This document shows positions 11,601 to 28,199 of a stretch of 64,000 nt of DNA, piece after piece (position 1 is the stretch's first letter; every line of letters begins with the position of its first letter). Made by a program: the position numbers and the translations under genes. Origin of the DNA: a virus (Duplodnaviria > Caudoviricetes); the IMG/VR virus record IMGVR_UViG_3300002220_003351, positions 8,923 through 72,922 of that record. One strand, given 5' to 3'. Below the pieces are notes generated by a model that ran no database searches, was not told the DNA's origin, and saw only the letters and a list, made by a program, of their open reading frames with translations.

Positions 11601-13289
11601 AAAGAGGTCGTCGAGAAAGGGGTCGAGTTCAACGACCGCAACGAGCGTGCCCTGAGAATGGCCCACGCCATCAGAAACATCGACATGGACCGGCTGGGTG
11701 AGATCCTGGGGATCTCCGCAAAGATCACCCGGTACATCAGCTCTATTAACACGCAATACAACCCCGTGTTCGGTGTGGTCAACTTCATCAGGGACGTGGG
11801 GACCGCCATGCTGAACCTCTCCACGACCCCCATCAGCGGGAAACAAAAAGAGGTCGCCCAGAACTCACTCCCTGCCCTGAGGGCCATCTTCTCCTCCCTG
11901 AGAGGAGGGACCACCAAGTCCGCGTGGGGTGATCTCTGGAGGGAGTTCCAGGAGAGGGGCGGGAGGACCGGGTACAGGGATCTCTTCAGGACCCCCACCG
12001 CGAGAACAGAAGAAATAGAGAAAGAAATCAAGGGTCTTACCAGGGGGCAGGCCATGAAGAAGGGGAGAGTCCTGTTTGATCTTCTCTCCCACTACAACAC
12101 CGCAATGGAGAACGCTGTCCGGCTCTCGGCCTACAAGGCGGGGATTGATTCCGGGATGACCAAGGACGCCGCCGCCGTAATGGCGAAGGAGCTCACGGTC
12201 AACTTCAACCGCAAGGGCCAGATCGCTACCCAGGCAGGGGCAATGTACGCCTTCTTCAACGCTTCCGCTCAGGGTATCTCAAGGATGTACCAGACCCTCG
12301 CGGGGCCTGCCGGAAAGAAGATCATCTACGGGGGGATCACGGTCGGGGTTCTCCAGGCGGCCCTTCTTGCGGCGGCAGGGTTCGATGATGACGAGCCCCC
12401 ACAATTCGTTAGGGAGAGAAACCTCGTCATCCCCACGGGGGGGAAGAGTTATATCACCATCCCCTTCCCTCTGGGGTTCCACTTCCTCCCGAACTTCGGA
12501 AGGATCGTTTCCGAGTGGGCTCTGTCGGGATTCGATAAGCCCCTCGACAGGCTCGGGGACTATGCCGGGGTCCTTGCGGAAGCCTTCAACCCTCTCGGGT
12601 CTTCGGGGGTCTCGTTGCAGACCATCACCCCCACCCCCATCGACCCGCTGGTGGCTCTGGCGGAGAACAAGGACTGGACCGGGAAGCCGATCGCCCGACA
12701 GGACTATAGCCAGCTCTCCCCCACTCCGGGGTTCACAAGGGCCAAGGACTCCGCAACGGTCTTCGGGAAGGCGTTTTCCTGGGCGCTCAACATGCTCTCC
12801 GGGGGGACCAAGTACAAACCCGGCCTCTTCAGCCCCACCCCGGACCAGATAGACTACCTCGGGGGCCAGCTCCTTGGGGGCGTGGGGAGGGAACTCGGGA
12901 AGGCGGAACAATTTATTACCGGGGCCGTCACCGGGGAGGAAGTGCCCACCTACAAGATCCCCCTCGCGGGGAGGTTCTTCGGGACCACCGAGGGATCCAC
13001 CCAGGAGAGGTCGAGGTTCTTCACCAACATCAAGGAGATGAACAAGCACGAGAACGAGATCAAGGGAAGGATGAAATCCGGCCAGCCCATTTCCGGGTAC
13101 TTCAAAGACAACCCTGAGGCGAGGATTTGGAGGGCCGCCAACGCCGTCGAGAACAGCATCTCAAGGCTCAACCAGCAGAAGCGTGCCCTCAAGGAAAGAG
13201 GGGCCTCCAAGGTCTCTATGGAGACCTTGGACAAGCTCATCTACTCCAAGATGAAGAACTTCAACGAGCGCTACGAGGCCCTCAGATGA
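5694..13289 (+). CDS. Large polyvalent protein (probably injected): hydrophobic N-terminus, P/A/E linker, HExxH zincin, three ADP-ribosyltransferase-like modules, LPD38-like C-terminus
   Basis: 2531 aa; HEAIH at 7986-8000; GPVYHG...YLSMKNPL...SADPVTYDDQGNVIPLSERF (ART-PolyVal-like); ENAVRLSAY...KELTVNFNRKG...YAFFNA (LPD38-like). Confidence 0.85.
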   Translation: MAEDYTWLQPLRPETEEEAPPEASSLFRRGVVDPLVGLAKGTIVGIPETVIGLANIPTLGYAGKAVEAGMRGVGLRTLPEMEEAMTGLLTPETRQAQKEVQETKGFFPTVGAALQRPSTIAQVVAESIPSMAVGARVAGAALGVGAQGISKAERLRRGIMAGGIGEGAITAGQNIESIRQQTEEGVLTPEQVAIGAVSGALTGAIGMASGKFAKWLKLEDFDTLLTGARSGVVGGDAKNVFKKIIVNAFREGVIEELPQSLQEQIAENIALGKPIDDNVMEQGAMGMLAGFAQGAGAQIAGDLLDRVKRKDPVDEAIDKMIAETDPEMAAMVNPPVIPETPKAPAAPAPEAVPPAAPIQEAPVALVAPEAPAKTPVETVPVTQEAEAPAPEAITPVEQPAEGQVSPPAEVPPVEDQVTRDAAATHPAEYTKGREDIAKVIASSGVETAAAQIDAYKKGVQNWIAQNGEPNEKVKGTIAMIKGMEDALVSPATIAEQPAGETLAPKTATAPSETPIAPGAEIAPQEAVSKEIPPQEARTPAETAVGMAPEEKAVPEAKTALEQAVPEIPALLQKSDEHYARAKALMNSTDPKDQALAQQELAAGAKTFAQWRKENPNTPDPREGQGTQMVREKISQAKTLKATLKANQEGVDKQLKEKVITPEVHDAVSKINKKLERLKLNVPVRYAKAATRTDEGDSIVIDANTKEGAQVLRKQGWSEDRINKAKEVGYVARISAETVRHEDSPGGPVRQEVILYDQSESVDARHEAIHVLVGAGILDPGPAPRGVTERAHEERFVDQVLKDIESGKVDFETLGEAQAQAKPKTSTKAKESLKRIRLEAKRSLEVEANITTVSSEEKIAKRLAAGDRYLAAIDRKILDLNNRGSELLATDQEGAQKLFSQAIRLQKQVLGDQFSQIEGLTDLVFKEGHGRYEGGGEATLVIQAKVPEEKTGLFKAILAREGITHDQNAVYVSYNIDVTEPEGWDQSQYPSTIFYFEKRLTPRESELIIQLMTESGIGGSTYLPADMTLTLKHIKEYDPEAVEWEKKIDSFIDKMKASGIQHRHSRIWQKIDDIRRDDYEGLVRKHAAEIAHTIARGRIRQEARGYPDVPGGEGRPLQEAGDYYGRGGGYIREAASTGPGPGRSVGKPSGLSEKDIREGRYSVQISKQEALKKKIILKKDPSAGSPVDFKNKDVILTHWSKEPNLTKTDPEKHGTGYSGAERKSKDAYPNLWIQKTYAGYGTYEAEEGLGPHRYQIDIKGNDLYDIWEDPLKLDPSADEVRKMGYYTAAAQHLIHEQRIRQLGFKGFVSTPHNVAAIYEPVSVQKVEPATETLPQKESRYSVSPEQGKGTVGDKQAEYAEKFKGDYQFDPETQVLIGSRYPTVVPRYFYHRPPSELKEGIKAYKNRNADGSSEYIDKAFGAPASDNIVWLSRQPDYGKTSSLRIDLAQLDPANLRDTGQAEGNIWHRGDIPESAIVRQSPEQGKGDAAYLKAVKSGDMETAQKMVDEAAREAGYKIGPVYHGAGEKFNQFDTRGGGWFISSKKEAAEYGNGEDIVSAYLSMKNPLTMTHKENATYGAELAERKARRLGNDGVIIPANKEFAEENVYTEAEHDVYVALSPEQIKSADPVTYDDQGNVIPLSERFNEKSPDVRYSIKTTLSNAIAYMTGKSQTPVSSTTQSASWDTPQKTKMSDMVYSIFDKQIDMREVVKNIKAYLGSIKEDIDPSQKETLFHGRVATKSEDFIRDEFHPLIEDMAAKKVDLEEFETYLWNRHAEEANNYVASINQNMPDKGSGIATQDARDYLAALDPKKRMVYAALAKRVDAILEKNAQILLDEGLESKSTIDRWKKAYRHYVPLFREDLEGRLGTGTGFSVTGASSKGRHGSTRPVANILANIAEQRDRYIVRSEKNRIAKALYGLAKLNPNEEFWRLARPTIETHTDIDTGLTVKIAGLGYKQRDNVVMHREIDPKTKEVVEKGVEFNDRNERALRMAHAIRNIDMDRLGEILGISAKITRYISSINTQYNPVFGVVNFIRDVGTAMLNLSTTPISGKQKEVAQNSLPALRAIFSSLRGGTTKSAWGDLWREFQERGGRTGYRDLFRTPTARTEEIEKEIKGLTRGQAMKKGRVLFDLLSHYNTAMENAVRLSAYKAGIDSGMTKDAAAVMAKELTVNFNRKGQIATQAGAMYAFFNASAQGISRMYQTLAGPAGKKIIYGGITVGVLQAALLAAAGFDDDEPPQFVRERNLVIPTGGKSYITIPFPLGFHFLPNFGRIVSEWALSGFDKPLDRLGDYAGVLAEAFNPLGSSGVSLQTITPTPIDPLVALAENKDWTGKPIARQDYSQLSPTPGFTRAKDSATVFGKAFSWALNMLSGGTKYKPGLFSPTPDQIDYLGGQLLGGVGRELGKAEQFITGAVTGEEVPTYKIPLAGRFFGTTEGSTQERSRFFTNIKEMNKHENEIKGRMKSGQPISGYFKDNPEARIWRAANAVENSISRLNQQKRALKERGASKVSMETLDKLIYSKMKNFNERYEALR
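9716..10144 (+). repeat. 21-bp direct repeat pair ATCCCCGGAACAGGGTAAGGG (9716-9736 and 10124-10144) flanking one ART-like module
   Basis: Exact copies read from the sequence; both encode SPEQGKG. Confidence 0.9.
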
Positions 13290-14520
13290 CCCCGTTGTAG
13301 AGCCTCCCGTCCCCCACCTTCCGCATGATCTTGTGGACGAGGCTCTTGAAGTTGCCGTGGGTTAATTCCTCCACCTTAGGGAGGTACCTCGCCTCCACAC
13401 ACAGGGCGAACACCTTTTGGAGGCACTCAAGCTGCTCCTTGTGTTCTTTGGGGATGTTCAGAAAGCTGGTGTCGAAGAAAGATTCCGTGATGTCCGAGTA
13501 GTCCCCCGTGTAAAACCCTTTCTCCTTGCAGTAGTCCCCCAGATTCGTCCCGGGGTACGGGGAGAAGATCGAGCACCATCCGTAGGCCGGTTGGCAGAGG
13601 ACGTTGACCTCAAGGGTCTCAAGGTCCTCCTCTATCGTGGCCGTGGGGAGCCCGATCATGTTCTGGATCATGAGCCTTATGTTCCACTTCTTGAGGAACC
13701 TCGCTGCCTCACGGGCGCTCTCCAGGGTTACATCCGTCCTATTAAGGAGTTTTCTGAGCCTCGTGCTTGCGGCCTCAAGGGCTATCCTGACGCTGAAGCA
13801 CCCGGCGTCGTGGAGCAGGAGAACCCTCTCCTCGGTGACCTGGCTGGGCCTGAGGTGGCAGTGAAAGGGGATGTTGACCCTCGATCGGTACTTCGGGGAG
13901 AACTCCTTGAGCCATTTCATCGAGGTTCCGAAGCAGGAATCCTGAAAGTAAACGAATTCCATCCCTTCGATGTCGCAGATTTCCTCTATTACGCTCTTAA
14001 CGCTTCTGAGTCTTACCCTTGGAATCTCGGGGAACATCTTGGCCCATCTGTCAGAATAGCAATAATTACAAGCACCTGGACAACCCCGGGAAGCGATGAA
14101 GTCCCTGATCTTCATGTTCGGGAAGTCCGTCCTGTCCGGGTACGGGATCGAGTCGAGGTTCGGGTACTTAGCCGGGGACCCCAGAAGCTCCGCAAAACCT
14201 TGCTCCGCTTCGCCCTTGAAAACAATGTTGAAGTCATCTCCGAAGTCCTCCGGGAAGAAGGTTGCATGGGGGCCTCCGGCGATAATGACCGGGGGGTTAT
14301 TCCTCGTTTTGATCTCACGGGCGATATCTTTGACCATCACCTGATTGCCTGTCATCACCGAGAACCCGACGATGTCCGGCTTCCATTTCTTCTCCTCTGC
14401 CAGGACATCCTTGAACTCGACGATCCTGCACTCATGTCCCGCCTGTTTCGCCACCGCAGAGAGATACATCGGACCCAGAGTCTCCATCTTTTTGGACTTC
14501 ACCGCCAGCAGGACTCTCAT
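13282..14520 (-). CDS. B12-binding radical SAM enzyme (class B methyltransferase-like)
   Basis: N-terminal cobalamin-binding Rossmann region (PDIVGFS...AGGPHAT); CPGACNYC CxxxCxxC motif; AGGAGG RBS. Confidence 0.9.
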   Translation of the reverse strand: MRVLLAVKSKKMETLGPMYLSAVAKQAGHECRIVEFKDVLAEEKKWKPDIVGFSVMTGNQVMVKDIAREIKTRNNPPVIIAGGPHATFFPEDFGDDFNIVFKGEAEQGFAELLGSPAKYPNLDSIPYPDRTDFPNMKIRDFIASRGCPGACNYCYSDRWAKMFPEIPRVRLRSVKSVIEEICDIEGMEFVYFQDSCFGTSMKWLKEFSPKYRSRVNIPFHCHLRPSQVTEERVLLLHDAGCFSVRIALEAASTRLRKLLNRTDVTLESAREAARFLKKWNIRLMIQNMIGLPTATIEEDLETLEVNVLCQPAYGWCSIFSPYPGTNLGDYCKEKGFYTGDYSDITESFFDTSFLNIPKEHKEQLECLQKVFALCVEARYLPKVEELTHGNFKSLVHKIMRKVGDGRLYNGVI

Positions 14521-14777
14521 TGTTCCTCCTCAGGAAATAGAATCGAAAACCCTTCTCGAAGACTTTGTTCGTTGATTATGGAGAGCGGCTTTAATCTGAT
14601 GCTCTTCTGGTAGACCGAGACAACCTTGCCGGAACAAATGATGTATTCCGCCTTGCATGACCTGCACGCCACCTGGATCCCGTCTATGGTCTCCCGGAGG
14701 GTCGTGTTGATGTTTCCACTCAAGTGGAGAGTCTCGTCGGACTCTATGTCTTCACTCCCGCAGAAGTGGCACCTCAT
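14517..14777 (-). CDS. Small zinc-ribbon protein
   Basis: CHFC...CRSC; ATGA overlaps with neighbours. Confidence 0.65.
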   Translation of the reverse strand: MRCHFCGSEDIESDETLHLSGNINTTLRETIDGIQVACRSCKAEYIICSGKVVSVYQKSIRLKPLSIINEQSLREGFSILFPEEEQ

Positions 14778-15181
14778 TGGACGACCTTTATCCCGGTGAT
14801 TTCAGACATTCTTTCGTCAATGAACCGGTGGATCTCGCAGCAGCATTTCCCCTCGCTGTTGATTTGGGCCGACCCCACCCAGGCATAGGGGATCATGTCG
14901 TTCTGGGCGGGCCTCATCAGGTATATGAAGAACCCGTTGAGCTGCGGCGCTCTCTCGTCCGTGTGCTCGGTCATCAGAATACCGAGGGAGTTCATCTGGT
15001 CCGGAATGTCATCCCGGGTGACATCAACCCCTAATGTCTTAAGGACAGAGTCTATCCCCGCCTCAAGGACCTCGACGGCCTTGTGGGCCGGGGAGTCCTT
15101 GACTTGGACCTTCTTGAGCATCCGGGCGCACAGCTCATCCTCGGATACCTCAAACCACGCTTTCTCGACCTTGTCGCTCAT
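14774..15181 (-). CDS. Hypothetical protein
   Basis: GGAGG RBS and ATG at 15181 overlapping the upstream stop; in frame with track ORF 14774..15307. Confidence 0.65.
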   Translation of the reverse strand: MSDKVEKAWFEVSEDELCARMLKKVQVKDSPAHKAVEVLEAGIDSVLKTLGVDVTRDDIPDQMNSLGILMTEHTDERAPQLNGFFIYLMRPAQNDMIPYAWVGSAQINSEGKCCCEIHRFIDERMSEITGIKVVQ

Positions 15182-16368
15182 AGCACCTCCAAACGCGGGA
15201 TTGCCGTTACGAATTTCGCTTTCCATTTCCGAATGTAGGATAACTGTTCCATGATCTCCTCTTTGAGGTTCCAAGGGAGTATGAGGACATATTCCGGGAG
15301 AGTGCACTTTATGCGGCTTTCCCCGAGAACCGGGATATGGCTTCCCGGGAGATATTTCCCCTGCTTGTGGGGGGATTTGTCCACCACGGAATGGATAAGG
15401 TCCCTGTTGATCCGGCAGTAGTTAAGGAGGGTGTTCCCTTTGGCCGGGGCTCCATAGGCAACAATCTCTGCCCCGTTTGTAACCAGAAACCTCAGAAGAT
15501 CACGGCGGATGTTTTCGGCCCTGTGCTGTAAAAACTTAGCCCTGGCCAAAGTGTCCGATTCCTTCCTGAGGACCCTTTTTATGTTCTTTAAGGGTTTCCT
15601 CTCCCCCTCGTGGCAGGCGTAGATTCTAAGGCTTCCCCCGTGTTCCGGGATCTCGTCGACATCGAACACCGTCAGCCTATGTTTCTTGAAGATCTTCATG
15701 ATGATATCGAGGCTGAAGTAGTTGTAGTGCTCATGATAGATCGTGTCGAACTGGTTGTATCTCACGAGGTTCATCAGGTGCGGGAACTCGGCGGTGATAA
15801 TCCCTTCAGGGGCGAGGGCGATCTTCATCCCCTCCACGAAGTCGTTGATGTCCGGCTGATGGGCGATGGTATTGATAGAGCAGATGAGGTCGGCCACAGG
15901 GAATAAATTGCCCTCAATGCCAACAAAATCACAACCAAAGAACCGCTTTACCGTGTTTATCCCCTTTGATTCTGCGATGGAAGCGGGTCCTTCCGCAGGC
16001 TCAAAACCGAGCACCCCGCACCCCATCTGCTTGAACCATTGAAGCATATACCCGTCATTGCTTCCGATCTCCACGACACGCTTGATGTGCGGGAATCTCT
16101 CAAGGATCATCTCCGCAAACTCTTTCGCATGGGACACATTTGAAGGGGACTGAGAGGAGAAATAGGGGTAGTCCTCCCTGAAGATCTCGGAGGCCTTCTT
16201 CATCTCCGGAATCTGGACCAGCCCGCAGGCACAAACATAGACCTTCAGCGGGTAGTAGATTTCCGGCTCCTCCAGTTGCTCCTTCGTCAGGAATGAGTTG
16301 GCCGGGGGCTGGTGGCCAAGGTCTATGAAGACATCCCTTAATGTCTTGTGGCAGAACCTGCACTTCAT
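15178..16368 (-). CDS. NDP-hexose C-methyltransferase (TylCIII/EryBIII-like) with N-terminal Zn-binding domain
   Basis: CRFC...DLGHQPPANSFL...PLKVYVC; VVEIGSNDG; YHEHYNYFS; YGAPAKGNTLLN. Confidence 0.9.
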   Translation of the reverse strand: MKCRFCHKTLRDVFIDLGHQPPANSFLTKEQLEEPEIYYPLKVYVCACGLVQIPEMKKASEIFREDYPYFSSQSPSNVSHAKEFAEMILERFPHIKRVVEIGSNDGYMLQWFKQMGCGVLGFEPAEGPASIAESKGINTVKRFFGCDFVGIEGNLFPVADLICSINTIAHQPDINDFVEGMKIALAPEGIITAEFPHLMNLVRYNQFDTIYHEHYNYFSLDIIMKIFKKHRLTVFDVDEIPEHGGSLRIYACHEGERKPLKNIKRVLRKESDTLARAKFLQHRAENIRRDLLRFLVTNGAEIVAYGAPAKGNTLLNYCRINRDLIHSVVDKSPHKQGKYLPGSHIPVLGESRIKCTLPEYVLILPWNLKEEIMEQLSYIRKWKAKFVTAIPRLEVL

Positions 16369-17441
16369 ATTATCGCCTCCAATAGATCAAGTTTCCCTTG
16401 GTAATCGTCAATATCATCGTCCGTGGCAATGATTCCATGCTCGTAATAGGCCCGGTACCAATCTATCGTCGTTTCCACCGCTTCCTCCATGGTCCTGATG
16501 GGCCTCCACCCGAGGAGCTTTCTGGACTCCGTGGAGTCAATCTTCAGGAGATATTGCATATGCGGGTGGGTGGGGGTGTTGTCTACTTCCCATTGGATCT
16601 TGGGCCACACACTTCTGGCTGTCCGGAGGACCTCAAGGACGCTCATTTCCCCGTCCGGGCCGAAGTTCCATGCCCGGTTGACATCCTGTCCCATTAAGAT
16701 CTTCTCCCCCAGGATGAGATACCCGGACAGCGCCTCCATCACATGCTGGAAAGGCCTCGTGGCGTTTGGGGTGTGGACGATGACCGTCTCTCCTTTGGAC
16801 GTTGCCCTCACGATATCGGGGATGAGCCTCTTGTAACTCCAATCTCCCCCACCGATCACATTCCCGGCCCTTGCGGTAGCGATGTTCATCCCGAATGACT
16901 CCCTGTAACACCTTATCACCTGTTCCACGCAGACCTTTGAGGCCGAATACGGGTCCACCCCTCCGAGTTCGTCTACCTCCCGGTATCCCCATGACCATTC
17001 CTTGTTCTCATAGATCTTGTCGGTGCTGATCACGACGACCCCTTTGACGCTGGGCGTCTTCCGGCAGGCCTCAAGGATGTTCACCGCCCCCATGACATTG
17101 TTCTCGAAAGTCTCCCGGGGTTCCGTAAAGGTCCGGGCGACGATGGCACGAGCGGCGAGATGGATCACAAGGTCGGGCCTATCGAAGCCTAACACCTTAC
17201 CGAGCAATCCGAAGTTCAGAAGATCCTGCCCCGGCATTAAATGAAGATCGGGAAGGTCATTTGACTTATAATTTATCGGATTCCCGAGGAGCTCGTGGTG
17301 ATTGGGAACAGTATTTGGCATGTGTCCGTACCCAGTAACCTCTGCCCCCAGCCTCTTGAGCCAATGGCAAAGCCAGCTACCTTTATATCCCGCGTGGCCG
17401 GTAACCAAGACCTTCTTCCCTCTGTAGATTTCAAACATCAC
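16365..17441 (-). CDS. rfbG: CDP-glucose 4,6-dehydratase
   Basis: VLVTGHAGYKGSWL; STDKIYEN; DPYSASK; ARAGNVIGGGDW; TRPFQHV. Confidence 0.92.
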   Translation of the reverse strand: MMFEIYRGKKVLVTGHAGYKGSWLCHWLKRLGAEVTGYGHMPNTVPNHHELLGNPINYKSNDLPDLHLMPGQDLLNFGLLGKVLGFDRPDLVIHLAARAIVARTFTEPRETFENNVMGAVNILEACRKTPSVKGVVVISTDKIYENKEWSWGYREVDELGGVDPYSASKVCVEQVIRCYRESFGMNIATARAGNVIGGGDWSYKRLIPDIVRATSKGETVIVHTPNATRPFQHVMEALSGYLILGEKILMGQDVNRAWNFGPDGEMSVLEVLRTARSVWPKIQWEVDNTPTHPHMQYLLKIDSTESRKLLGWRPIRTMEEAVETTIDWYRAYYEHGIIATDDDIDDYQGKLDLLEAII

Positions 17442-17641
17442 ACTGCTCCTTTCATTACCCTTAGCCGTCGGCCGTCCACCGTTCCTTTCCAGTAATCCTC
17501 AACCTCAAATCCAAGGGCCTTTAGGATCTCGATCAGCTGCTCTACCGTGACAGTTTGCCCGGAAATAATGACTGCCCGCTGCTGATGCGCTTCCTTGCGG
17601 GGCTCCGGGTGCCCTGGTATGTCAAAATCCGGTGTCATCAT
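17438..17641 (-). CDS. Hypothetical small protein
   Basis: 67 aa; 4-bp overlaps with both neighbours. Confidence 0.55.
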   Translation of the reverse strand: MMTPDFDIPGHPEPRKEAHQQRAVIISGQTVTVEQLIEILKALGFEVEDYWKGTVDGRRLRVMKGAV

Positions 17642-18528
17642 CCCCCCCTTGCGTCAAGATAGATCTTGTCCATGCTCGATAGGAGCACCTGGCAGTTCTT
17701 GCAGCAGCCTATGTCGGTGATCCTCCCTTCCAGCATCATATTTCTGAACCTCTGGAACTTGAAGTTGTTGTAGATCTTCATGGGGTCGGTCTTGAAGACG
17801 TTCCCCCGGACCCTCATGTCCCCGCAGCAGAGGATCACATCCCCGTTGATGAAGAGGAGCATCCGGTTCAAAAGGTCCGGGCAGATCTGTTTTGTCTCCC
17901 CGAAGGCGGCGATCCTATTGAGCCTCTCCTGGCGCTTCTCCTCGACCTCGGTTCCCCAGACATCGTAACAGGCCACCTGGTCCCCGAACTTTTTTGAGAG
18001 CACTCCCCTCCAGATCTCGCTGTATTCAGGCCACTCCTCCCTGTTGATATCCTGGCGGATCATCCTCATGATGATCTTGGTATTTCCGCAAGAGTTCCTC
18101 AGGTTGATAAACCTGACGATATTCTCCATGACCTTGCCGTAATCCACCTTCCTGATCTTTTCGTGAGACTCTTTGAACCCGTCCACCGAAAAAATGATCG
18201 TGTCGAGTCCGGCCGCCATAAGATGGTGAGCCATGCGTGCGTCCACATGAGTGGCGTTTGTGGCGAACCCCACCCCCTTGAACCCCCGGGCCTTTGCCTC
18301 CCGTACCTTGGTGATGATCGTGGGGTCCAAAAGTGTCTCCCCCAGCCCCTGGAGGTTGAGGTACTTGAGCCTGTCCACATAGGGCTCGAAAGCCTCCAGG
18401 ATCCTTATGAAGTCCTTCACGCTCATCACCCCCTTCCGGGGGGACTCCTTGATGTTGCACATGACGCAGTTGGCGCTGCACTTCCCGGCGAGGGTCTCGA
18501 TCTGTAGATACTCTGGGAAATAAATCAT
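17638..18528 (-). CDS. Radical SAM protein with SPASM/twitch domain
   Basis: CSANCVMC; GLGETLLDP; C-terminal CPDL...GDVILCC...CKNC. Confidence 0.9.
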   Translation of the reverse strand: MIYFPEYLQIETLAGKCSANCVMCNIKESPRKGVMSVKDFIRILEAFEPYVDRLKYLNLQGLGETLLDPTIITKVREAKARGFKGVGFATNATHVDARMAHHLMAAGLDTIIFSVDGFKESHEKIRKVDYGKVMENIVRFINLRNSCGNTKIIMRMIRQDINREEWPEYSEIWRGVLSKKFGDQVACYDVWGTEVEEKRQERLNRIAAFGETKQICPDLLNRMLLFINGDVILCCGDMRVRGNVFKTDPMKIYNNFKFQRFRNMMLEGRITDIGCCKNCQVLLSSMDKIYLDARGG

Positions 18529-20977: not shown

Positions 20978-21699
20978 TCAGTCCTCCTAATAAGCCACCC
21001 TCCCTCAGCAGAGGTCAAAAGGGCCTGGGCCTCGATCTCCTGGTCGGCCTCGAACCCCGGGTTACCACTTAGAAACTCCCTCACCGCCGTCATGGGGTTG
21101 TTCCCCGGCCCCCACGGCTTGTCCCCGCAGTCCACATTCATGGTCTCGATGGTGGTGTCGAACACCACGATATAGGACCCCGCCGGGACGAGCCTCGAAT
21201 AAAGGTTCAGCTCATTCAGCACATGCTCGTGCGTGTGGGAGGAGTCCAGAACCACGATCACCTTGTCTCCCCCCACAAGCGCCCTCACCTTTCCGTAAGT
21301 CTCCGGGGAGGTGCTGTCCCCCTCTATGAGATGGATCCTGTTCCAGAGGGGGCTTTCCATGAGGGCCTTGCGGTTGTGGTCCCTGATCTCGATGTCCACC
21401 CCTATAACCTGTCCCCACTCGATGCTCTCCATGACGGAGGCGTAGAACAGGAGGGATCCCCCGAATGCCACCCCGGTCTCGATGACGAAGTCCGGCTCGA
21501 TCCTGCAAATGAGTTCCTGCATGGCGAACATGTCTGTGGGGAGCTGGAGGATGGGCTGGCCCATCCAGGTCCAGTTCTTGACATACTCGGTTTCGATTAT
21601 AGCCTCGTAGAGCTTCTTTTTCCGATACTGGATGAACGTCGGAGAATCACCACTCAGCCTCTTTGTTCTTTCCTGGAGATACTCTTCTATCGGATTCAT
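20974..21699 (-). CDS. CmcI/cephalosporin-hydroxylase-family (rhamnosyl O-) methyltransferase
   Basis: WMGQPILQLPTD...IETGVAFGGSL; LDSSHTHEHV; YIVVFDT. Confidence 0.88.
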   Translation of the reverse strand: MNPIEEYLQERTKRLSGDSPTFIQYRKKKLYEAIIETEYVKNWTWMGQPILQLPTDMFAMQELICRIEPDFVIETGVAFGGSLLFYASVMESIEWGQVIGVDIEIRDHNRKALMESPLWNRIHLIEGDSTSPETYGKVRALVGGDKVIVVLDSSHTHEHVLNELNLYSRLVPAGSYIVVFDTTIETMNVDCGDKPWGPGNNPMTAVREFLSGNPGFEADQEIEAQALLTSAEGGWLIRRTE

Positions 21700-23152
21700 A
21701 CATTTTCCTTTCGCAAAGGGAGAGGTAGTCTTGAGCCCACTTGTGGCCCTGAGATCGCTTCAGGACCTCCTTAAAACACTTCGCCGCTGTTTCGTAATCC
21801 CCGATCTTCATCCGGTAGTTGTTGTGGAAATTGAGCTCGATGTTCATGTTGTAGATCTTGTCGAACACCTCCCCGGGGTCGATGCCGGGGACCTTGATGA
21901 AGTAGCTCTCCCTGTCCGAGTAGGACCCGATCACCCTTTCCCCAATACCTGTCTTCTCGATGTAGCCCTTGTCGATGCACTCGTCATAGAGGGGGCTCCC
22001 TCTGAAGGGGACGACGGGGTTGAAGAAGCACCAGTCGAACCCGACATCGTTGATGAACAGGGACGTTTCCCTCCGGTGGGCGTCTGTCTCCCCGGGCATC
22101 CCCATGACGAAGAACCCGATGACGAAGATCCCGTTGTTCCGGAGGGCCTCGACGGCTGGTTTCACGCAGGCGAGGTTTATGGGCTTCCTCATTAACTTGT
22201 GAAGGACGTAGTCGGACCCGTTCTCCACCGCCAGGTAAATGGTGTCCATCCCGGCCTGCTTCATGAGCCCAGCCATCTCCTCGTCGATAAAGGTCACCGA
22301 CAACCCGTTGGGGCACTCGATCCTAAGCTTGTAAGGGGCGAGTTTTCTAAAGAGTTCCTTGGCCCTCCCCATCCGTATTAAAAGCTGGTCGTCGTAAATT
22401 GTCAACGTATCCATCCCGTATTCTTTAACCATCCTGTCAACATGGGCGATGATCCTGTCCACGGAGGCGAACCTCATCTTCTGCCCGTGGATCTTTGCGT
22501 TAGCGCAGTAGGTGCACTCAAACGGACACCCCCTTGAGGTAACAAGGAAGAACTTGCTCCGGCGCTCGTCAGAGAACGGGGAGAAGGCCTCCTTCATCTT
22601 GTACCCATTGATGTCCACCAGCCCATAGTCCAGATCCACAACCTGGTCGAGGTCCTCAAGGTAGGAGATGGTTGGGGGATCGAGTTTGCCCTTTGTGACC
22701 CACGCAGGGTCCGAGAAGTTCCCGTGGGTGAGCAGGGACCTCATGGGAACCTCCCCCTCGGAGTAGCAGATCGCATCCAATAGGGGCTGGTCCTTCAGGA
22801 TCTCCTTATAGGAGTAGGAGGCGGCGGCCCCGCCAAGAATCCGGATCGCATTGGGATCGACGCTCCACGACAGATCCAGCAACTGGTTAAGGAGCGGGTA
22901 GGAGTTGTCGAACATCATCGTGAACCCGATAATGTCCGGGCGGTACTCCCGGATATAAAGCTCCAATGTAATATCGGGGCAGTCGCGGTAGAAATTCAGG
23001 TCCAGTATCCTGAAGTCCGCGAGCCCCTTGTTGTAGGTGGCGATACTCAAGGCCCCATACGGGAAGGCGGCGTAGCTGTGAACCCTCGTTTCCGTTGACG
23101 GCCTCTCCACCACATACGGGAGGACTACAAAAAGAACCTTCTTTTTGGCCAT
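21647..23152 (-). CDS. B12-binding radical SAM enzyme (class B methyltransferase-like)
   Basis: Cobalamin-binding N-domain; SRGCPFECTYC; YLAVENG; GMPGET. Confidence 0.9.
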   Translation of the reverse strand: MAKKKVLFVVLPYVVERPSTETRVHSYAAFPYGALSIATYNKGLADFRILDLNFYRDCPDITLELYIREYRPDIIGFTMMFDNSYPLLNQLLDLSWSVDPNAIRILGGAAASYSYKEILKDQPLLDAICYSEGEVPMRSLLTHGNFSDPAWVTKGKLDPPTISYLEDLDQVVDLDYGLVDINGYKMKEAFSPFSDERRSKFFLVTSRGCPFECTYCANAKIHGQKMRFASVDRIIAHVDRMVKEYGMDTLTIYDDQLLIRMGRAKELFRKLAPYKLRIECPNGLSVTFIDEEMAGLMKQAGMDTIYLAVENGSDYVLHKLMRKPINLACVKPAVEALRNNGIFVIGFFVMGMPGETDAHRRETSLFINDVGFDWCFFNPVVPFRGSPLYDECIDKGYIEKTGIGERVIGSYSDRESYFIKVPGIDPGEVFDKIYNMNIELNFHNNYRMKIGDYETAAKCFKEVLKRSQGHKWAQDYLSLCERKMYESDRRVSPGKNKEAEW

Positions 23153-24093
23153 CTCTCAAGGACCTCCTCTGCCCTCGAATCAAGATCGTCCTGCTGAAGG
23201 GTGATGACATCCGGGATCTTGCACCCGTTGCAGGCGTCGTAAAGTATCTGCCGGTTCCGCAGTTTCTTGAGCATCATCACGAGGAACTTATTCATCTCCT
23301 CGCTCTCCCACGCCTTCCTGATCGTGGTCTCCCTGACGTTCCCCAAATAAAGGGGGTCGTAATAGGAGCAGCAGGGCAAAATATCCCCCGAAGCCGTTAT
23401 GTTGAGGTTATAGAACGGGTGGGGGCAGACAAGGACAGGGGGGTGGGGTTGCCGGAACTTGTTCTCCTCGTTTTCCCCCTCCTCGAAAATCGGGCAGATC
23501 TTCTCGACGTACATCCTGTCGCTGATGTTCTTGAAGATGGAGTAGAACTTCTCCTCGTCCCCCCCGACGGTCTTGACGTAGACCTCGCACCCCCTCTTGT
23601 TCTTGTACAGATAGGAGATGTTGCTCACGAACTTCCTGAAGTCCAGACTGACCCCCGAGACCTTCTTGTAGCCCTCTGCATTAAGGGCTTGTACGGAGAT
23701 CTTGATGGCATCCACCCTCGCCCCCACAAGGAGGCCGGACACGAAAGGGCTCAAGAGGGAGCCGTTGGTCACCAGGGAAATCCTCTCGGCCACCTTCATC
23801 TTCTTCATGAAGGCGATCATCAGGGGGAGGTCCTTGTTCATGAGCGGCTCCCCCCACCCGGCTATGGTGATCTGCTTGATGGGGCTCGTGAAGTCCTGGA
23901 GCTGGTCGCAGATCATGAAAAAGGTGTCCCAGTCCATCATCGGCCCGATCTTGTGCTTGGACTTGATGCAGTACCCGCACCGGAAGTTGCAGACCTCGGA
24001 CGGGGTGATCTGGATGGCCAGCGGCTGCACCAATGGGACCGTGTCCGCGAGGATCGTCCTGTTGTCGTCGTAGCTCGGCTTGATTTCGGACAT
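23125..24093 (-). CDS. Radical SAM protein with SPASM/twitch domain
   Basis: CNFRCGYC; GWGEPL; TNGSLL; CPHPF...GDILPCC...CNGC. Confidence 0.9.
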   Translation of the reverse strand: MSEIKPSYDDNRTILADTVPLVQPLAIQITPSEVCNFRCGYCIKSKHKIGPMMDWDTFFMICDQLQDFTSPIKQITIAGWGEPLMNKDLPLMIAFMKKMKVAERISLVTNGSLLSPFVSGLLVGARVDAIKISVQALNAEGYKKVSGVSLDFRKFVSNISYLYKNKRGCEVYVKTVGGDEEKFYSIFKNISDRMYVEKICPIFEEGENEENKFRQPHPPVLVCPHPFYNLNITASGDILPCCSYYDPLYLGNVRETTIRKAWESEEMNKFLVMMLKKLRNRQILYDACNGCKIPDVITLQQDDLDSRAEEVLERWPKRRFFL

Positions 24094-24101
24094 CTCACCC
24101 C

Positions 24102-24332
24102 CTAATTAAAGTCGTACCCGGTTCCATTGCATCTCGGACATTTCTTCCCCTTCCGGATCTTCCAGAGGTGATCCATCCTCCTGATGAAGCACCTGGTCCA
24201 CTTCTGGGCGTACCTGTTTCTGTCGTCCTCTGAGCCGTCCCCGGAATAGACGGCCCCGTGGAGCTTGTTCGCGTACTTCTCGGCGGCGGGGATCAGCCTG
24301 TTCCTTTCGGTTTCGTATTCGAGGTTTGTCAT
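24102..24332 (-). CDS. Small protein with C-terminal CPRCNGTG zinc knuckle
   Basis: 76 aa; operon-like spacing. Confidence 0.6.
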   Translation of the reverse strand: MTNLEYETERNRLIPAAEKYANKLHGAVYSGDGSEDDRNRYAQKWTRCFIRRMDHLWKIRKGKKCPRCNGTGYDFN

Positions 24333-25330
24333 ATTGCGTCCCTCTCCTTCTTCGGGGAATCCATCATTTCCTCAAATGTGGTGCTCCAAGCCTGGATCAT
24401 GTAGTCCAACGAATAGAGCTTCGCCGCCCGCTCCCTCGCCCTTGCCCCCATTTTGAGCCTCACCTCCTTGTGGGCGGCAAGATACTGGACCCTGTGGACA
24501 TATTCCTTTTCGTTCCGGGCAATGAACCCGTCCCACCCATCGGAGACAATGTACCTTTCGGGCAAGTTGTCCATCACCACCGGGGGGATCCCCGCCGCCA
24601 TGGCCTCCCCCAGGACCTGTTCGCAGGTCCCGTAGTGGTCGTGCCTCAACGGGTACCCGAAGATATCCATGCCTTCAAGGTAGGGGGCGACATCATCCAC
24701 CTTCCCGGTAAAAGTGATGGACCCGTTGAAAAACGAATCCGGCTGGTTGGCGATATTGTTCTCCCCGACAACCGTAAAGTGGATATCGGGGACTGCCGAC
24801 GCGATCTCATGGACCATCGAGACAAATTCCCCATGGAGCTTTTTCCAGTCGACTGTACCCACATACCCCACATTGATCCCCTCATGGGGTTTGTTGACGA
24901 TCTTCAGGAACCTATCCACCCCTCCCGTGGACCAGATCATCTGGTATTTCCCCCCACCGACCACAGGTGAGGTCACCACGAAGCGATCGGCGTAAGACGG
25001 CTCACTACCCAGGGGGAAGTTTTTGTGAGCCCACAGGGCCAACCTGCTGGCCGGGAGGGGCCTCTTAAGGAAGGCTTGGAGCATCGGATGGTCCCATAAA
25101 TGGATTACCACGACATCCGACCCCTCGATGAGCTGGTCGACGGTGTCGAGGCTGCGGATCATCTCCCACCCCAGGCCGATCTTGTTCTTTACCAGAAAAG
25201 AGCCGACCTTCTCGTTCAGGGTGTCCAGGGAGAGCACCGTATGGGTGTTCCCCTTGTCTCCCCCGACCCACCCCATCACGACCGTCCCGACTCCTCCCCC
25301 GTAGTGGGGACTGATGTGAAGGACTTTCAT
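24329..25330 (-). CDS. Glycosyltransferase family 4 (GT-B fold)
   Basis: MKVLHISPHYGGGV; VGYVG; DIFGYP; EAMAAGIPPV; DGWDGF. Confidence 0.88.
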   Translation of the reverse strand: MKVLHISPHYGGGVGTVVMGWVGGDKGNTHTVLSLDTLNEKVGSFLVKNKIGLGWEMIRSLDTVDQLIEGSDVVVIHLWDHPMLQAFLKRPLPASRLALWAHKNFPLGSEPSYADRFVVTSPVVGGGKYQMIWSTGGVDRFLKIVNKPHEGINVGYVGTVDWKKLHGEFVSMVHEIASAVPDIHFTVVGENNIANQPDSFFNGSITFTGKVDDVAPYLEGMDIFGYPLRHDHYGTCEQVLGEAMAAGIPPVVMDNLPERYIVSDGWDGFIARNEKEYVHRVQYLAAHKEVRLKMGARARERAAKLYSLDYMIQAWSTTFEEMMDSPKKERDAI

Positions 25331-25530
25331 ATAATCCCCCTTTCCCTCTGGTGGACCCTCCGGGCCTTCTCCCGATCACCCTGATGGGGCTTGTACTTGT
25401 TCCGGCTCAAAGCCCTCAGTCCGGGCCTGTCCCTGAACAGACGACGATACCAGGGCAGTTTAAGTTCCTGCGTATTGCTGAATATCGTCGCCAACAACGC
25501 TCTTCCTAACGGAACCTGTTCCTGTTTCAT
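25327..25530 (-). CDS. Hypothetical basic small protein
   Basis: 67 aa; ATGA overlaps. Confidence 0.55.
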   Translation of the reverse strand: MKQEQVPLGRALLATIFSNTQELKLPWYRRLFRDRPGLRALSRNKYKPHQGDREKARRVHQRERGII

Positions 25531-26042
25531 AATTTTTCCTCCGGTATCCCTGTTATATAGGCCCCTTGACCCATAGGAATGTTTAGGACGGCCCCCTCCC
25601 CATAATACTTAATTGCAGCCCTGTCATAAGCGGCGGCGGCAGACAAAATATCCCGGTAGGAGCCGCAATGAATTTTTTGTTTTTGATACTTTATTTGCGC
25701 TTGAAATGTTTTGTCTCTTTTGTTGAAGAATACTCCCCTGAACCCGGATTTGTTGTGGCTTTGAAGTTTGCAATTATGCCCATTAAGAGAACGGGACGCC
25801 ACCCGGAGATTGCCCTTCCTATTGTCCAGGCCATTGCGGTTCTTGTGGTCTATAATCTTGCCGTCGCCTTTGGTTAATTTCATAATCTCCCTGTGCAATG
25901 ATGTTCTTGGCTCTCCTGCATATTCATGTCGAGCAGCATAAAAAATATCCTTTGGCCTGAACACATGCCATTTATACCTCGACAACCACTCATAGTCCTC
26001 CGCATCAACGACGGCCACCTTTCCTTGCGTCAGCGGTATCAC
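25527..26042 (-). CDS. HNH endonuclease with AP2 DNA-binding domain
   Basis: IPLTQGKVAVVD; LHREI...IDHKNRNGLDNRKGNLR; SGFRGV...AAAAYDRAA; probable GTG start at 26042. Confidence 0.88.
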   Translation of the reverse strand: MIPLTQGKVAVVDAEDYEWLSRYKWHVFRPKDIFYAARHEYAGEPRTSLHREIMKLTKGDGKIIDHKNRNGLDNRKGNLRVASRSLNGHNCKLQSHNKSGFRGVFFNKRDKTFQAQIKYQKQKIHCGSYRDILSAAAAYDRAAIKYYGEGAVLNIPMGQGAYITGIPEEKL

Positions 26043-26166
26043 TTTCGCGGCTCCGGTCCCAATAAGGGCTATGACATCGGGGGCAAACTCGGACATCTGG
26101 CTTTCGGGGATTCCATTCATAATCACACCTCCTACACTTTAATTGTTTCTTAATGACAACCTTCAT
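26005..26166 (-). CDS. Small zinc-ribbon protein
   Basis: GGAGG RBS; CRRCDYEWNPR...CPRCHSPYW. Confidence 0.7.
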   Translation of the reverse strand: MKVVIKKQLKCRRCDYEWNPRKPDVRVCPRCHSPYWDRSRESDTADARKGGRR

Positions 26167-26181
26167 GATCCCTCCTGTGTG

Positions 26182-26214
26182 ATTATGAATATATTGCTTG
26201 AAATCATTTGTCAA
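26182..26214 (-). promoter_or_regulatory. Putative internal sigma70 promoter
   Basis: TTGACA at 26214-26209 followed by AT-rich TATATTCATAAT upstream of the RBS. Confidence 0.55.
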
Positions 26215-26992
26215 GTTTTTCTTCAGGCGTCCCATAAAGATATGCGGATTGACCCATGTAAGCCGTGAGCCTGAATGACCATCTGTAATTCGGGAGATTG
26301 TCCATGAGGGTCTTCTGGATCTTCCAGAGCCCATCTCTACTGTGGTAGCAGGCGCATGCTATGACCGGGCGACACTTCTTGAACATCCCCATGTTTTGTT
26401 CGATTATCTCAAGCTCCTTGCCTTCCGCATGGATGTTGACTTCTTTTGAGTCCGGGTACATCTCGAATCGTTGCCTCGCCCTGATATCCGCGAGGGTCGA
26501 GGGTTGAGGGGGCGTTGCGAGCTCAACGGGAAATGAGTCCTGGTCGTCCCGCAACACCCTCCACCTAAGAAATTGTATGTAGCCGAGCCACGCATAAGGA
26601 CGGGAACTGTCAAGGAGGATGTTGGATACGTCCGCTATCCCGTTTTTGTCCTCGACGTCCAGTTTCCCAGCCAGCCACCCATTATGGAGCCCCGTCTTGT
26701 CGGCATAGAACTCAAGGATGTCCCACACGGGGACCACATCCGTCCAGCCCTGCTCCTTAAGCTGTTTCTCTATGGGGCCGTAGGGCTCGGAGGCCACACA
26801 GACGGCAACCAGGGAGTTTTCCGGAAGGTCCCATTTTTCGGAGATCCAGGAGCGGACGATCATTTCCTTTCTGTCCAATATCCCCCTGATGGGGATCCCC
26901 AGCTCCGTGAAGATCTCCTCTGCCAAGTGCCCCAATTTGCCATAGCCGTACAAAATTAAGGGCTTGTTGACTTCCCTCGGGCCTATTTCCAT
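26204..26992 (-). CDS. FkbM-like methyltransferase with an apparently deleted SAM-binding core
   Basis: N-terminal LILYGYGKLG; C-terminal IHAEGKELE...RPVIACACYH...LWKI...YLY resembles the FkbM C-half. Confidence 0.55.
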   Translation of the reverse strand: MEIGPREVNKPLILYGYGKLGHLAEEIFTELGIPIRGILDRKEMIVRSWISEKWDLPENSLVAVCVASEPYGPIEKQLKEQGWTDVVPVWDILEFYADKTGLHNGWLAGKLDVEDKNGIADVSNILLDSSRPYAWLGYIQFLRWRVLRDDQDSFPVELATPPQPSTLADIRARQRFEMYPDSKEVNIHAEGKELEIIEQNMGMFKKCRPVIACACYHSRDGLWKIQKTLMDNLPNYRWSFRLTAYMGQSAYLYGTPEEKLDK

Positions 26993-27219
26993 TGCTTCAC
27001 AATCCTTTCCCTGGCGGCGTCCTCGGAGATACTGAGCCAGTGGCAGATCATCGGGAACATCCCCCGTGGTTCCAGGATGAACCTTCGTGCGTCGTCCCGA
27101 TCCCTTGTGGGAAAGGGCTCTTTCGCGTCCTCGATCGCCTTCAGCATCACGGCTGCCCACAAGGCCCCTTCCCCTCCCCTGTCTACCGCTTTTGATTCCT
27201 TGTTCGCGAGTTTAAGCAT
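26983..27219 (-). CDS. Hypothetical protein
   Basis: 78 aa; LWAAVMLKAIED motif common in phage small proteins. Confidence 0.6.
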   Translation of the reverse strand: MLKLANKESKAVDRGGEGALWAAVMLKAIEDAKEPFPTRDRDDARRFILEPRGMFPMICHWLSISEDAARERIVKQWK

Positions 27220-28199
27220 TGGATGAGCTCCTCCGAATAGCAGTCAATATCATCGGGCATGCAGTGGCTCAACTGCCCACACTCTCCGCAGATCCTGTGC
27301 TTCTTCCGGTCCATCTCAAGGTTCATCATCCTGAACTTGTGGAGCTTGGCCCCCTCCCAGATTCTCTTGAACTTCTGCTTTTTGAGGTCCCCTATAATGA
27401 GTTTGCGCTGCCAGTCCAGAAAACAGAGGCTTACGGTCCCGTCGCTGTTGATTGAAAGGGAATAGAAGACATAGGGGCAGACCTGAACCTCCTTGACCCT
27501 GTTCCCGTAGATCCCGATGTCGCTGTCCACCCCTTCGACCTCGTACCCGGGCCAGCAGGGGGCGGTGTGCTCTATGAAGACCCTGTCGGAGATATCCCCG
27601 AAGACCTCGAAGAACCTGTCCCTCTCGGCCTGGGTCATGTTGTCCCCCACGATCTTGACATAGATCAGAAGCTGGCCCTTGTGCCTGTAAAGGTGCCGGA
27701 TGGCCTTTACGAACTTCCCGAACTTCAGCTTGTACCCTGTAAAGTGGTAGTAGGCCTCGGAGGACATCCCGTTCACGGAGATGAAGATCTTGTCCAGGCC
27801 CGACTGGACCAATTTCAGATTGAGCCAGGGGGTCAACAGGGAGCCGTTGGTGGTCGTGTCCACCTGCCCGAACCTCCCGGATTCCTTGGCGTACCGGACC
27901 ATAGCCGGGAAATTCGGGTTCAGGAGGGGCTCCCCATCCTTATAGAGCCTTAACGTCTTAATCGGCTCCGGCATCTTGCAGAGGTCGTCGATGATCTTTT
28001 TGTAGAGGTCCCATTGCATCAGTTGGGGCTTGCGGATTGTCCGGATCTTCGTCCAGTCCCCCGTGGGGCAGAACCTGCAATGGAAGTTGCAGATGTCCGA
28101 AGGATCCAGGAACACCAGATACGGGGTCGAAAGGGGGATCACCGTCTCCAGCCTCGTCCGCCCCTCAAGCTCTATCCTCGGCTTAATCTCGGCCTTCAC
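27183..28199 (-). CDS. Radical SAM protein with SPASM/twitch domain
   Basis: CNFHCRFC; LYKDGEPLL; TTNGSLL; CPYVF...GTVSLC...CGEC. Confidence 0.9.
   Translation of the reverse strand: MKAEIKPRIELEGRTRLETVIPLSTPYLVFLDPSDICNFHCRFCPTGDWTKIRTIRKPQLMQWDLYKKIIDDLCKMPEPIKTLRLYKDGEPLLNPNFPAMVRYAKESGRFGQVDTTTNGSLLTPWLNLKLVQSGLDKIFISVNGMSSEAYYHFTGYKLKFGKFVKAIRHLYRHKGQLLIYVKIVGDNMTQAERDRFFEVFGDISDRVFIEHTAPCWPGYEVEGVDSDIGIYGNRVKEVQVCPYVFYSLSINSDGTVSLCFLDWQRKLIIGDLKKQKFKRIWEGAKLHKFRMMNLEMDRKKHRICGECGQLSHCMPDDIDCYSEELIQCLNSRTRNQKR

Follow-up and report, generated by a model that had tools for sequence, protein, structure and literature searches.

This analysis concerns a 64,000-nucleotide stretch of a Caudoviricetes virus record (IMG/VR record IMGVR_UViG_3300002220_003351, positions 8,923 to 72,922), hereafter the window, and within it a block of about 15 kb that very probably encodes a pathway for making a sugar and transferring it to an acceptor. 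The virus record comprises 72,922 bp and is estimated to be 81% complete; the window is its last 64 kb and codes for a terminase, a portal, a scaffold and a major capsid protein, collagen-like fibres, a 2531-amino-acid (aa) virion protein and a primase-polymerase. Neither tRNA genes nor an integrase were found in the record. The distant kin of the capsid protein are podoviruses, for example Pseudoalteromonas phage vB_Pun_Y3 and Pseudomonas phage Rollin.

From position 28199 down to 13282 every gene lies on the minus strand, mostly with 4-nt overlaps between neighbours (Table 1). Transcription starts with SPASM_338 and proceeds through an FkbM-like methyltransferase, an HNH-AP2 endonuclease, the GT4 glycosyltransferase, SPASM_322, B12rSAM_501, CmcI and RfbF, followed by an N6/N4 DNA methylase, SPASM_296, RfbG, a 3-C-methyltransferase, a 135-aa protein, an 86-aa protein and B12rSAM_412. 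Using family profiles and motifs, we recovered at their places in the block all ten enzymes that an earlier note on this DNA had named, namely RfbF, RfbG, the 3-C-methyltransferase, CmcI, GT4 and the five radical S-adenosylmethionine (SAM) enzymes; the FkbM-like methyltransferase had been overlooked there. The same note had described the block as co-directional and tightly overlapping, which holds, but the DNA methylase and the HNH-AP2 endonuclease interrupt it. Both are mobile or unrelated inserts rather than pathway genes; the DNA methylase is missing from the syntenic clusters of loci L002, L005 and L007, and HNH-AP2 copies occupy different cluster positions in L002 and L005.

Table 1. Position, strand and supporting matches of the genes of the block, in order of transcription, and of further methyltransferase and fibre genes in the window.
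Feature	Position	Strand	Evidence
SPASM_338, radical SAM/SPASM enzyme	27183-28199	-	Pfam Radical_SAM and SPASM; CX3CX2C at residue 37
FkbM-family methyltransferase	26204-27160	-	matches cellular cassette genes with PF05050 (tblastn)
HNH-AP2 homing-type endonuclease, mobile insert	25527-26126	-	Pfam HNH_3 and AP2
GT4-type (GT-B) glycosyltransferase, dedicated transferase of the cassette	24329-25330	-	Pfam Glycos_transf_1, Glyco_trans_1_4
SPASM_322, SPASM/twitch enzyme, optional cassette member	23125-24093	-	Radical_SAM and SPASM; CX3CX2C at residue 35
B12rSAM_501, cobalamin-binding radical SAM enzyme	21647-23152	-	Pfam B12-binding and Radical_SAM
CmcI/RMNT-family methyltransferase	20974-21699	-	PF04989, 248.7 bits
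RfbF, glucose-1-phosphate cytidylyltransferase (very likely)	20204-20977	-	TIGR02623, 295.2 bits, full length
N6/N4 DNA methyltransferase	18525-20288	-	PF01555, E 1.5e-48
SPASM_296, SPASM/twitch enzyme, optional cassette member	17638-18528	-	Radical_SAM and SPASM; CX3CX2C at residue 17
RfbG, CDP-glucose 4,6-dehydratase	16365-17441	-	TIGR02622, 385.7 bits, cut-off 278.45 (passed)
NDP-4-keto-6-deoxyhexose 3-C-methyltransferase (TylCIII/TcaB9/KijD1/MtmC type)	15178-16368	-	PF08421, PF13489, PF08484
Conserved 135-aa protein, between the C-methyltransferase and B12rSAM_412 throughout the phage family	14774-15181	-	
86-aa Cys-pair (zinc-ribbon-like) protein	14517-14777	-	CxxC...CxxC; 4-nt overlaps on both sides
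B12rSAM_412, cobalamin-binding radical SAM enzyme	13282-14520	-	Pfam B12-binding and Radical_SAM
Second FkbM-family methyltransferase, head of the terminase/head operon	44046-44981	+	PF05050, E 1e-15
TylF-family sugar O-methyltransferase, between portal and scaffold genes	50572-51153	+	PF05711, E 6e-20
Tail fibres with collagen-like (Gly-Ser/Thr-Ser/Thr)n arrays	57998-63259 (57998-60658, 61436-63259)	+	translations

The score of RfbF falls about 5 bits short of the TIGR02623 equivalog cut-off of 300.25, with residues 1-257 aligned to a model of 255 positions; because the next best families score at most 88 bits, we consider the assignment very likely. The 3-C-methyltransferase has the domains expected of its family (an N-terminal, zinc-binding Methyltransf_13, a SAM methyltransferase domain and a C-terminal Methyltransf_14) and is matched over its full length in the PDB by entries 5t64, 4rv9 and 3ndi (E 5e-65 to 2e-61, residues 2-396), that is, by KijD1, MtmC and TcaB9. 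By its domain match CmcI is a member of the PF04989 family; against the NCBIfam model for rhamnosyl O-methyltransferase (NF045824) it scores 97 bits vs a cut-off of 400. The FkbM-like protein has no Pfam match of its own and resembles FkbM methyltransferases in an Atlas structural match (template-modelling score 0.85); its true start probably lies near 26992.

The CX3CX2C motif is intact in all five radical SAM proteins. SPASM_338, SPASM_322 and SPASM_296 combine PF04055 with PF13186, as SPASM/twitch enzymes do, and carry five to seven C-terminal cysteines, seven being found in SPASM_338 alone; none of the three reaches a peptide-maturase equivalog cut-off. B12rSAM_501 and B12rSAM_412 combine PF02310 with PF04055 (motifs at residues 147 and 209), the layout of cobalamin-dependent radical SAM enzymes. 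Every NCBIfam score of the radical SAM proteins is far under its equivalog cut-off. The nearest solved relatives of SPASM_338 are BtrN, MoaA, DesII and BlsE and that of B12rSAM_501 is AprD4, all by remote and partial matches (E 1e-14 to 1e-16); BtrN, DesII, BlsE and AprD4 act on sugars. From its sequence, B12rSAM_501, whose gene adjoins GT4 in most phage loci, is a putative C-methyltransferase or AprD4-like enzyme. Two B12 radical SAM genes of relatives are each interrupted by about 0.8-1 kb, the B12rSAM_501 homologue of L011 (7527-10001, an 824-aa open reading frame (ORF)) and the B12rSAM_412 homologue of G006 (27994-30063), and these interruptions may be further mobile insertions. For GT4, a suggested likeness to GtfA and serine-rich-repeat glycosylation was not borne out: its PDB sequence matches are TreT, PimA and BshA-like enzymes alone (E 1e-4 or weaker), GtfA is not among them, and the domain recognized is a generic GT-B domain.

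The families and motifs, all intact, agree with the idea of a pathway of nucleotide-sugar synthesis, methylation, radical SAM tailoring and transfer. Judged by family membership, RfbF and RfbG would produce cytidine diphosphate (CDP)-4-keto-6-deoxy-D-glucose, to which the TylCIII/TcaB9-type enzyme would add a C3 methyl branch, probably on a CDP- rather than a thymidine diphosphate (TDP)-linked substrate. CmcI, FkbM and TylF may O-methylate the sugar, the two B12 radical SAM enzymes may methylate or rework unactivated carbons or perform AprD4-like chemistry, and the SPASM/twitch enzymes may carry out radical redox or epimerisation steps of the BtrN/DesII kind. The branched deoxysugar pathways of TylCIII, TcaB9, KijD1 and MtmC likewise C3-methylate a nucleoside diphosphate (NDP)-4-keto-6-deoxyhexose and then O-methylate it; there, however, the sugar is TDP-linked and the genes lie in an antibiotic cluster, whereas here the sugar would be CDP-linked, the locus is of the glycan- or protein-decoration type and radical SAM enzymes are added. 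BtrN, DesII, BlsE, AprD4 and the GenK-type B12 methylases of antibiotic pathways have the same domain layouts and cluster motifs as the phage enzymes, but the similarity is only remote and partial.

Judged by its homologues, the cassette is not a phage invention. SPASM_338, its most conserved core, has more than 2000 homologues, many of them in bacterial metagenome-assembled genomes (MAGs) at 55-65% identity. Scanning one genome per species, we found 261 SPASM_338 loci in cells and examined 80 of them; across the more than 260 cellular genomes the homologues are 50-63% identical. The bacterial carriers belong to Thermodesulfobacteriota, Pseudomonadota, Spirochaetota, Bacillota, Campylobacterota, phyla of the candidate phyla radiation (CPR) and Cyanobacteria, and the archaeal ones include Methanospirillum, Methanoperedenaceae and Promethearchaeota. 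Homologues of the other phage proteins lie within 10 kb of SPASM_338 at many of the 80 loci: GT4 at 70, RfbF at 49, RfbG at 46, the FkbM-like methyltransferase at 42, CmcI at 33, the C-methyltransferase at 32, B12rSAM_501 at 29 and SPASM_322 at 13. SPASM_296 has homologues at 4 of the 80 and in L013. The typical cellular order begins with RfbF, RfbG, an RmlC-like 3,5-epimerase, the C-methyltransferase, an NAD-dependent reductase and SPASM_338, and continues with GT4, FkbM, in some cases a B12 radical SAM enzyme and further SPASM or class I methyltransferases, and CmcI. This gene set is what synthesis of a CDP-6-deoxy-3-C-methyl-O-methyl-hexose, including a 2-O-methyl form, would need; CDP-vinelose of Azotobacter vinelandii is a sugar of this type. 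Searching with the cellular proteins (tblastn), we found no counterpart of the RmlC-like 3,5-epimerase, the 4-ketoreductase or Wzx in this phage. Radical SAM steps may replace the epimerase and the ketoreductase in the phage copy.

In a quick maximum-likelihood tree of SPASM_338, phage sequences occupied at least four separate positions and the cellular phyla were scrambled, and therefore the cassette moves horizontally and has been captured by phages repeatedly. The nearest cellular sequences come from Smithella and Syntrophaceae. Two sequences from MAGs group with the phages and have the arrangement of the phage family, L024 (Thermodesulfovibrionales, 24 kb), which includes the 135-aa protein and B12rSAM_412, and L093 (Eubacteriales, 4.5 kb); both are probably phage contigs binned into MAGs.

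The cellular cassette is often found near flagellin. We searched 46 genomes, 36 of which had any flagellin, and in 18 of these 36 a flagellin gene occurs on the contig of the cassette, no more than about 12 kb away; the chance expectation, estimated from 1-11 flagellin genes per genome of 3-5 Mb, is a few per cent. A flagellin gene falls within the 10-kb flanks at eight loci (L021, L023, L051, L056, L058, L069, L081 and L092), and at 11 more it lies 7-11 kb from the last cassette gene on the same contig. Flagellin had also been suspected inside L022, L065, L080 and L017; a local hidden Markov model (HMM) or contig check did not confirm it, and these loci were left uncounted. Neighbours of the cassette include a 1220-aa Maf/MptE-like protein in Halarcobacter, a GT41-TPR protein in Burkholderiaceae and other TPR proteins; at L051 a GT2-TPR protein adjoins the cassette with flagellin directly after it. 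Going by these neighbourhoods, the cellular cassette belongs for the most part to flagellin O-glycosylation islands and in some cases to polysaccharide loci. Our literature search found no paper describing a radical SAM-containing cassette in flagellin islands.

The phage block has its gene set and order in common with the cellular cassette found near flagellin. Its proposed logic is that of the known flagellin O-glycosylation islands of Campylobacterota, Aeromonas, Caulobacter and Pseudomonas (Maf-, FlmG/TPR- and GT41-type), in which an unusual methylated sugar is made and put on a surface-exposed protein filament. The phage copy differs in residing in a lytic-looking phage that has no flagellin and lacks the epimerase and the reductase. 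The transferase is Maf or FlmG in the islands and of TibC type in the phage, and the extra B12 radical SAM enzyme and the 135-aa protein are specific to phages.

On phage-sized metagenome contigs, the longest of them 65-73 kb, we found about 390 homologues of GT4, which are 40-52% identical to it. A tblastn search of 50,697 deposited phage records gave no match to GT4 (at E 1e-5) or SPASM_338, and megablast of the block against deposited phages gave none either. The view that the combination is foreign to characterised phages thus stands for deposited genomes, but it is common in cellular genomes and uncultivated phages. Two modules can be told apart. Module B (SPASM_338, FkbM, GT4 and B12rSAM_501) is common to cells and unrelated phage lineages, while module A (CmcI, RfbF, RfbG, the C-methyltransferase, the 135-aa protein and B12rSAM_412) travels with the phage family. 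CmcI is kept in every member of that family, as is B12rSAM_412, whose relatives in cellular cassettes were seen at 3 of the 80 loci with 25-27% identity; B12rSAM_412 is therefore a phage-family-specific member. G006, a relative with terminal repeats whose capsid protein shares 89% identity with that of this phage, carries module A without module B. G003, estimated to be 100% complete, carries module B with CmcI, the 135-aa protein, B12rSAM_412 and a short-chain dehydrogenase/reductase (SDR); RfbF and the C-methyltransferase are missing from it.

In other phages, the module lies among structural genes. The order in L006 is large terminase (TerL), portal, a GT2-like gene, SPASM_338, GT4, a B12 radical SAM enzyme, an aldo-keto reductase, scaffold and major capsid protein; in L015 it is TerL, GT4, a B12 radical SAM enzyme, an aldo-keto reductase, portal and scaffold. 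Genes within the module overlap by 4 nt in both, and judged by this arrangement the module is part of a head-morphogenesis operon. The cassette has been captured by at least four phage groups, in two of which it sits among terminase, portal and capsid genes. Two neighbouring genes, one in L006 and one in L013, were searched against the PDB; L006:7789-9036 matched only a generic glycosyltransferase domain (chondroitin synthase, E 8e-7), and L013:12120-14729 had no match in the PDB sequence search.

A second glycosyltransferase points to protein as the acceptor. A 1375-aa fusion protein (L003 record positions 1187-5314, 3.6 kb before the window start) heads the tail operon and consists of a GT4 domain, a middle domain without a family match, a C-terminal TibC-type domain and a basic tail. 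Its GT4 domain is split by an intein with a LAGLIDADG domain (residues ~274-608), and the intein-free proteins of relatives measure 970-1013 aa. The only PDB match of the C-terminal domain is the protein O-heptosyltransferase TibC (E 7e-36 over ~315 residues), with the four iron-finger cysteines aligned; the match to PF01075 is weak. The four-cysteine motif is also the likeness to TibC and Aah of the BAHT family, from which the phage protein differs in that the domain is fused behind GT4 and middle domains and its gene heads a tail operon. The GT4-middle-TibC fusion is present in every sampled member of the phage family (G001, G002, G003, G006, G008 and G010). GT4 would transfer the finished sugar, most likely to a glycan primer that this fusion would have placed on Ser/Thr of virion proteins.

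A candidate attachment motif was seen in virion proteins. With the collagen-like fibres excluded and composition-preserving shuffles as a control, GT[STAH]G occurs 9 times in the virion-module proteins of this phage (G000), 14 times in those of G003 and 14 times in those of G006, vs 1.1-1.6 in shuffles, and 2, 1 and 0 times in the remaining proteins vs 0.4-0.7 expected. The motif is thus enriched 6-13-fold in the virion-module proteins (window positions 55240-58001 and the homologous regions of G003 and G006), and from this pattern it is a possible glycosylation sequon.

The collagen-like fibres behave differently. The earlier note had proposed that the cluster co-occurs with GTSG-repeat virion proteins, and we scored five consecutive Gly-Ser/Thr-Ser/Thr triplets as the fibre pattern. 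It is found 31 times in this phage, 25 times in G008, five times in G001, four times in G010 and once each in G002, G003, G007, G009 and G012; G006 has none, nor has any of G004, G005 and G014-G017, other phage lineages that carry module B and of which two are 100% complete. Among the G003 proteins no ORF has even two consecutive triplets, and the G006 fibre has four triplet pairs only. The repeat-specific claim fails because G003 has GT4, SPASM, B12 radical SAM and CmcI genes without a collagen-like Ser/Thr fibre; G006 has almost none and the six phages of other lineages have none. The cluster without a Ser/Thr-rich fibre in relatives is also what the earlier note itself had said would speak against this link.

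Taken together, we put a probability of roughly 0.5 on the reading that the block is the phage copy of a widespread mobile glycan cassette, which in cells serves mostly flagellin O-glycosylation, and that the phage uses it to decorate virion proteins. Whether the acceptor is a virion protein is, taken by itself, about an even call. Virion proteins, the acceptor favoured from the start, are still the best-supported target, in view of the flagellin-island context of the cellular cassette, the family-wide TibC-type fusion and the module in the head operons of other phages; the last two are why protein decoration, probably of the virion, is the best reading. The particle would then bear a flagellin-style, highly methylated glycan coat. 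A more specific version, in which at least four phage groups independently captured the cassette, a multiply C- and O-methylated branched 6-deoxysugar not described before is attached by the TibC-type enzyme to virion proteins at G-T-x-G and radical SAM chemistry replaces the epimerase and reductase, is put forward only tentatively. The host is probably an anaerobe and not an actinobacterium; an anaerobic host would suit because five of the enzymes are oxygen-sensitive and two are cobalamin-dependent. Among the sequencing runs listed as containing the sequence there is no RNA run, and the one with its full length is a hydrocarbon metagenome, which may be the source sample.

Several observations weigh against decoration of the virion. 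Transcription of the 15-kb block in this phage goes together with that of early/middle-type genes, apart from the structural operon. The sub-modules part company in relatives, G006 having sugar genes without GT4 and SPASM_338 and G003 the reverse. The enrichment of GT[STAH]G was defined after the fact and is common to these phages by descent, and the repeat arrays vary among the fibres without following the cluster. In the non-flagellated Desulfobacula, Wzx and GT2 genes lie beside the cassette instead, and the cassette thus sits in polysaccharide loci of some cells; GT4 may therefore act on a lipid-linked glycan. Since the epimerase and the reductase were not found by tblastn, the phage may depend on a host copy, which fits modification of a host structure too.

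Such host-surface remodelling, in which the cassette alters flagellin, pilin, S-layer glycan or polysaccharide of the host and thereby masks receptors against superinfection or aids release, is the strongest alternative, though we consider it rather unlikely. The native cellular role is decoration of flagellin or surface glycans, a phage copy without epimerase and reductase could lean on a host cassette, the block forms part of a non-structural transcription unit in this phage, and the nearest cellular relatives of SPASM_338 are flagellated anaerobes. However, neither an integrase nor other lysogeny genes were found in the phage, which makes long-term conversion unlikely, and no flippase, polymerase or Gtr-type genes were found. 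The placement of the module in head operons of other phages and of the TibC-type fusion at the head of the tail operon throughout the family likewise speaks for the virion rather than the host surface.

It is quite improbable that the block is a passenger, a recently acquired mobile cassette that travels with homing endonucleases and either has no virion-specific role or makes a free glycoside or small molecule. The repeated cell-phage exchange and scrambled taxonomy of the SPASM_338 tree, the HNH-AP2 genes, DNA methylase and inteins scattered through the region and the gain and loss of sub-modules among close relatives would all fit a passenger. Yet no reading frame is broken, the catalytic motifs are all preserved and the genes are translationally coupled. 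A diverged phage family and at least four phage groups retain them at 45-60% identity, which speaks for selection in phages.

Radical SAM enzymes are known from thymidine hypermodification pathways, and a DNA methylase lies inside the block; still, placement of the sugar on a modified base of phage DNA to block restriction is very improbable, as neither a thymidylate-synthase-type hydroxymethylase (PF00303) nor TGT/DpdA (PF01702) was found in the 81% complete record, the sole Tet_JBP signal (PF12851, 14.7 bits vs a cut-off of 34.9) lies in a DUF3150 gene and was judged noise, the methylase is of N6/N4 rather than C5 type and not shared by the relatives' syntenic clusters, the other methyltransferase is FkbM-type, and the cellular cassette is tied to flagellin and glycan loci, not DNA. 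Phage glycosyltransferases that add diverse glycans to 5-hydroxymethylcytosine (5hmC) are known (bioRxiv 10.1101/2023.12.21.572611), and these 5hmC-glycan clusters and the T4 glucosyltransferase systems resemble the block in combining phage glycosyltransferases with accessory genes, but no base-activating gene (hydroxymethylase, or C5 methyltransferase plus TET) was found in this phage.

Sugar genes also lie beyond the block: besides the fusion glycosyltransferase upstream of the window, these are the second FkbM gene, which is kept in G003, G006, G008 and G010, and the TylF-type gene, which among the relatives is confined to this phage and has one homologue in the cellular cassette L047. Within the block, the 135-aa protein has homologues in L002, L005, L007, L010, L024, G006 and G008. 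Its AlphaFold model (predicted local distance difference test score 77) has no PDB fold match, and the Atlas gave no usable match; assignment as an RmlC-like cupin was ruled out by its small size and wrong shape. The 86-aa Cys-pair protein has a sub-threshold match to Lar and nothing else. Directly upstream of SPASM_338 lies the gene of a 172-aa protein (28183-28701), the first 93 residues of which match several PHROGs without known function and, weakly, a family of nucleotide pyrophosphohydrolases. Farther along the window, a minus-strand trio (38396-41718) codes for an AAA+ (MoxR/CobS-like) ATPase, a DUF3150 protein and a DUF2201 metallopeptidase-plus-VWA protein and is kept in G006. The 817-aa TerL (45790-48243) holds an insertion of about 350 aa (residues ~272-621), probably an intein, which is present in G008 and not in the TerL of G003, G006 and G010; a 'thymidylate synthase' PHROG match lies within this insertion.

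To our knowledge, virion glycosylation has so far been shown only for mycobacteriophages and giant algal viruses. In the mycobacteriophages Che8, Corndog and Myrna, phage glycosyltransferases are reported to decorate capsid and tail proteins (Freeman et al. 2023, cited in PMC12363180 and PMC12582341). Glycosyltransferase and sugar genes are likewise interspersed with structural genes in the present case. The present system differs in that GT4 has no sequence match to deposited phages and hence no detectable homology to Che8 gp110 or Corndog gp38, and in that it encodes a nucleotide-sugar pathway in full, including up to seven methyltransferase-type genes and five radical SAM enzymes. Virion and DNA glycosylation by phages being already known, what is new here is that a radical SAM-rich cassette of the flagellin-island type is carried by phages.

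If our reading is correct, virion glycosylation would extend to environmental phages of anaerobes, and a virion would be decorated by a complete, self-encoded pathway for an exotic methylated sugar. It would also identify a widespread, apparently uncharacterised radical SAM-GT4 cassette of flagellin glycosylation islands, present in more than 260 genomes of bacteria and archaea, and with it new candidate radical SAM sugar-tailoring reactions. Aquitalea aquatica, Jiella sonneratiae, [Clostridium] aminophilum and Halarcobacter are among the tractable carriers in which the chemistry of the cassette could be worked out. Our reading would also supply a definite example of genes passing repeatedly between protein-glycosylation islands of cells and structural operons of phages.

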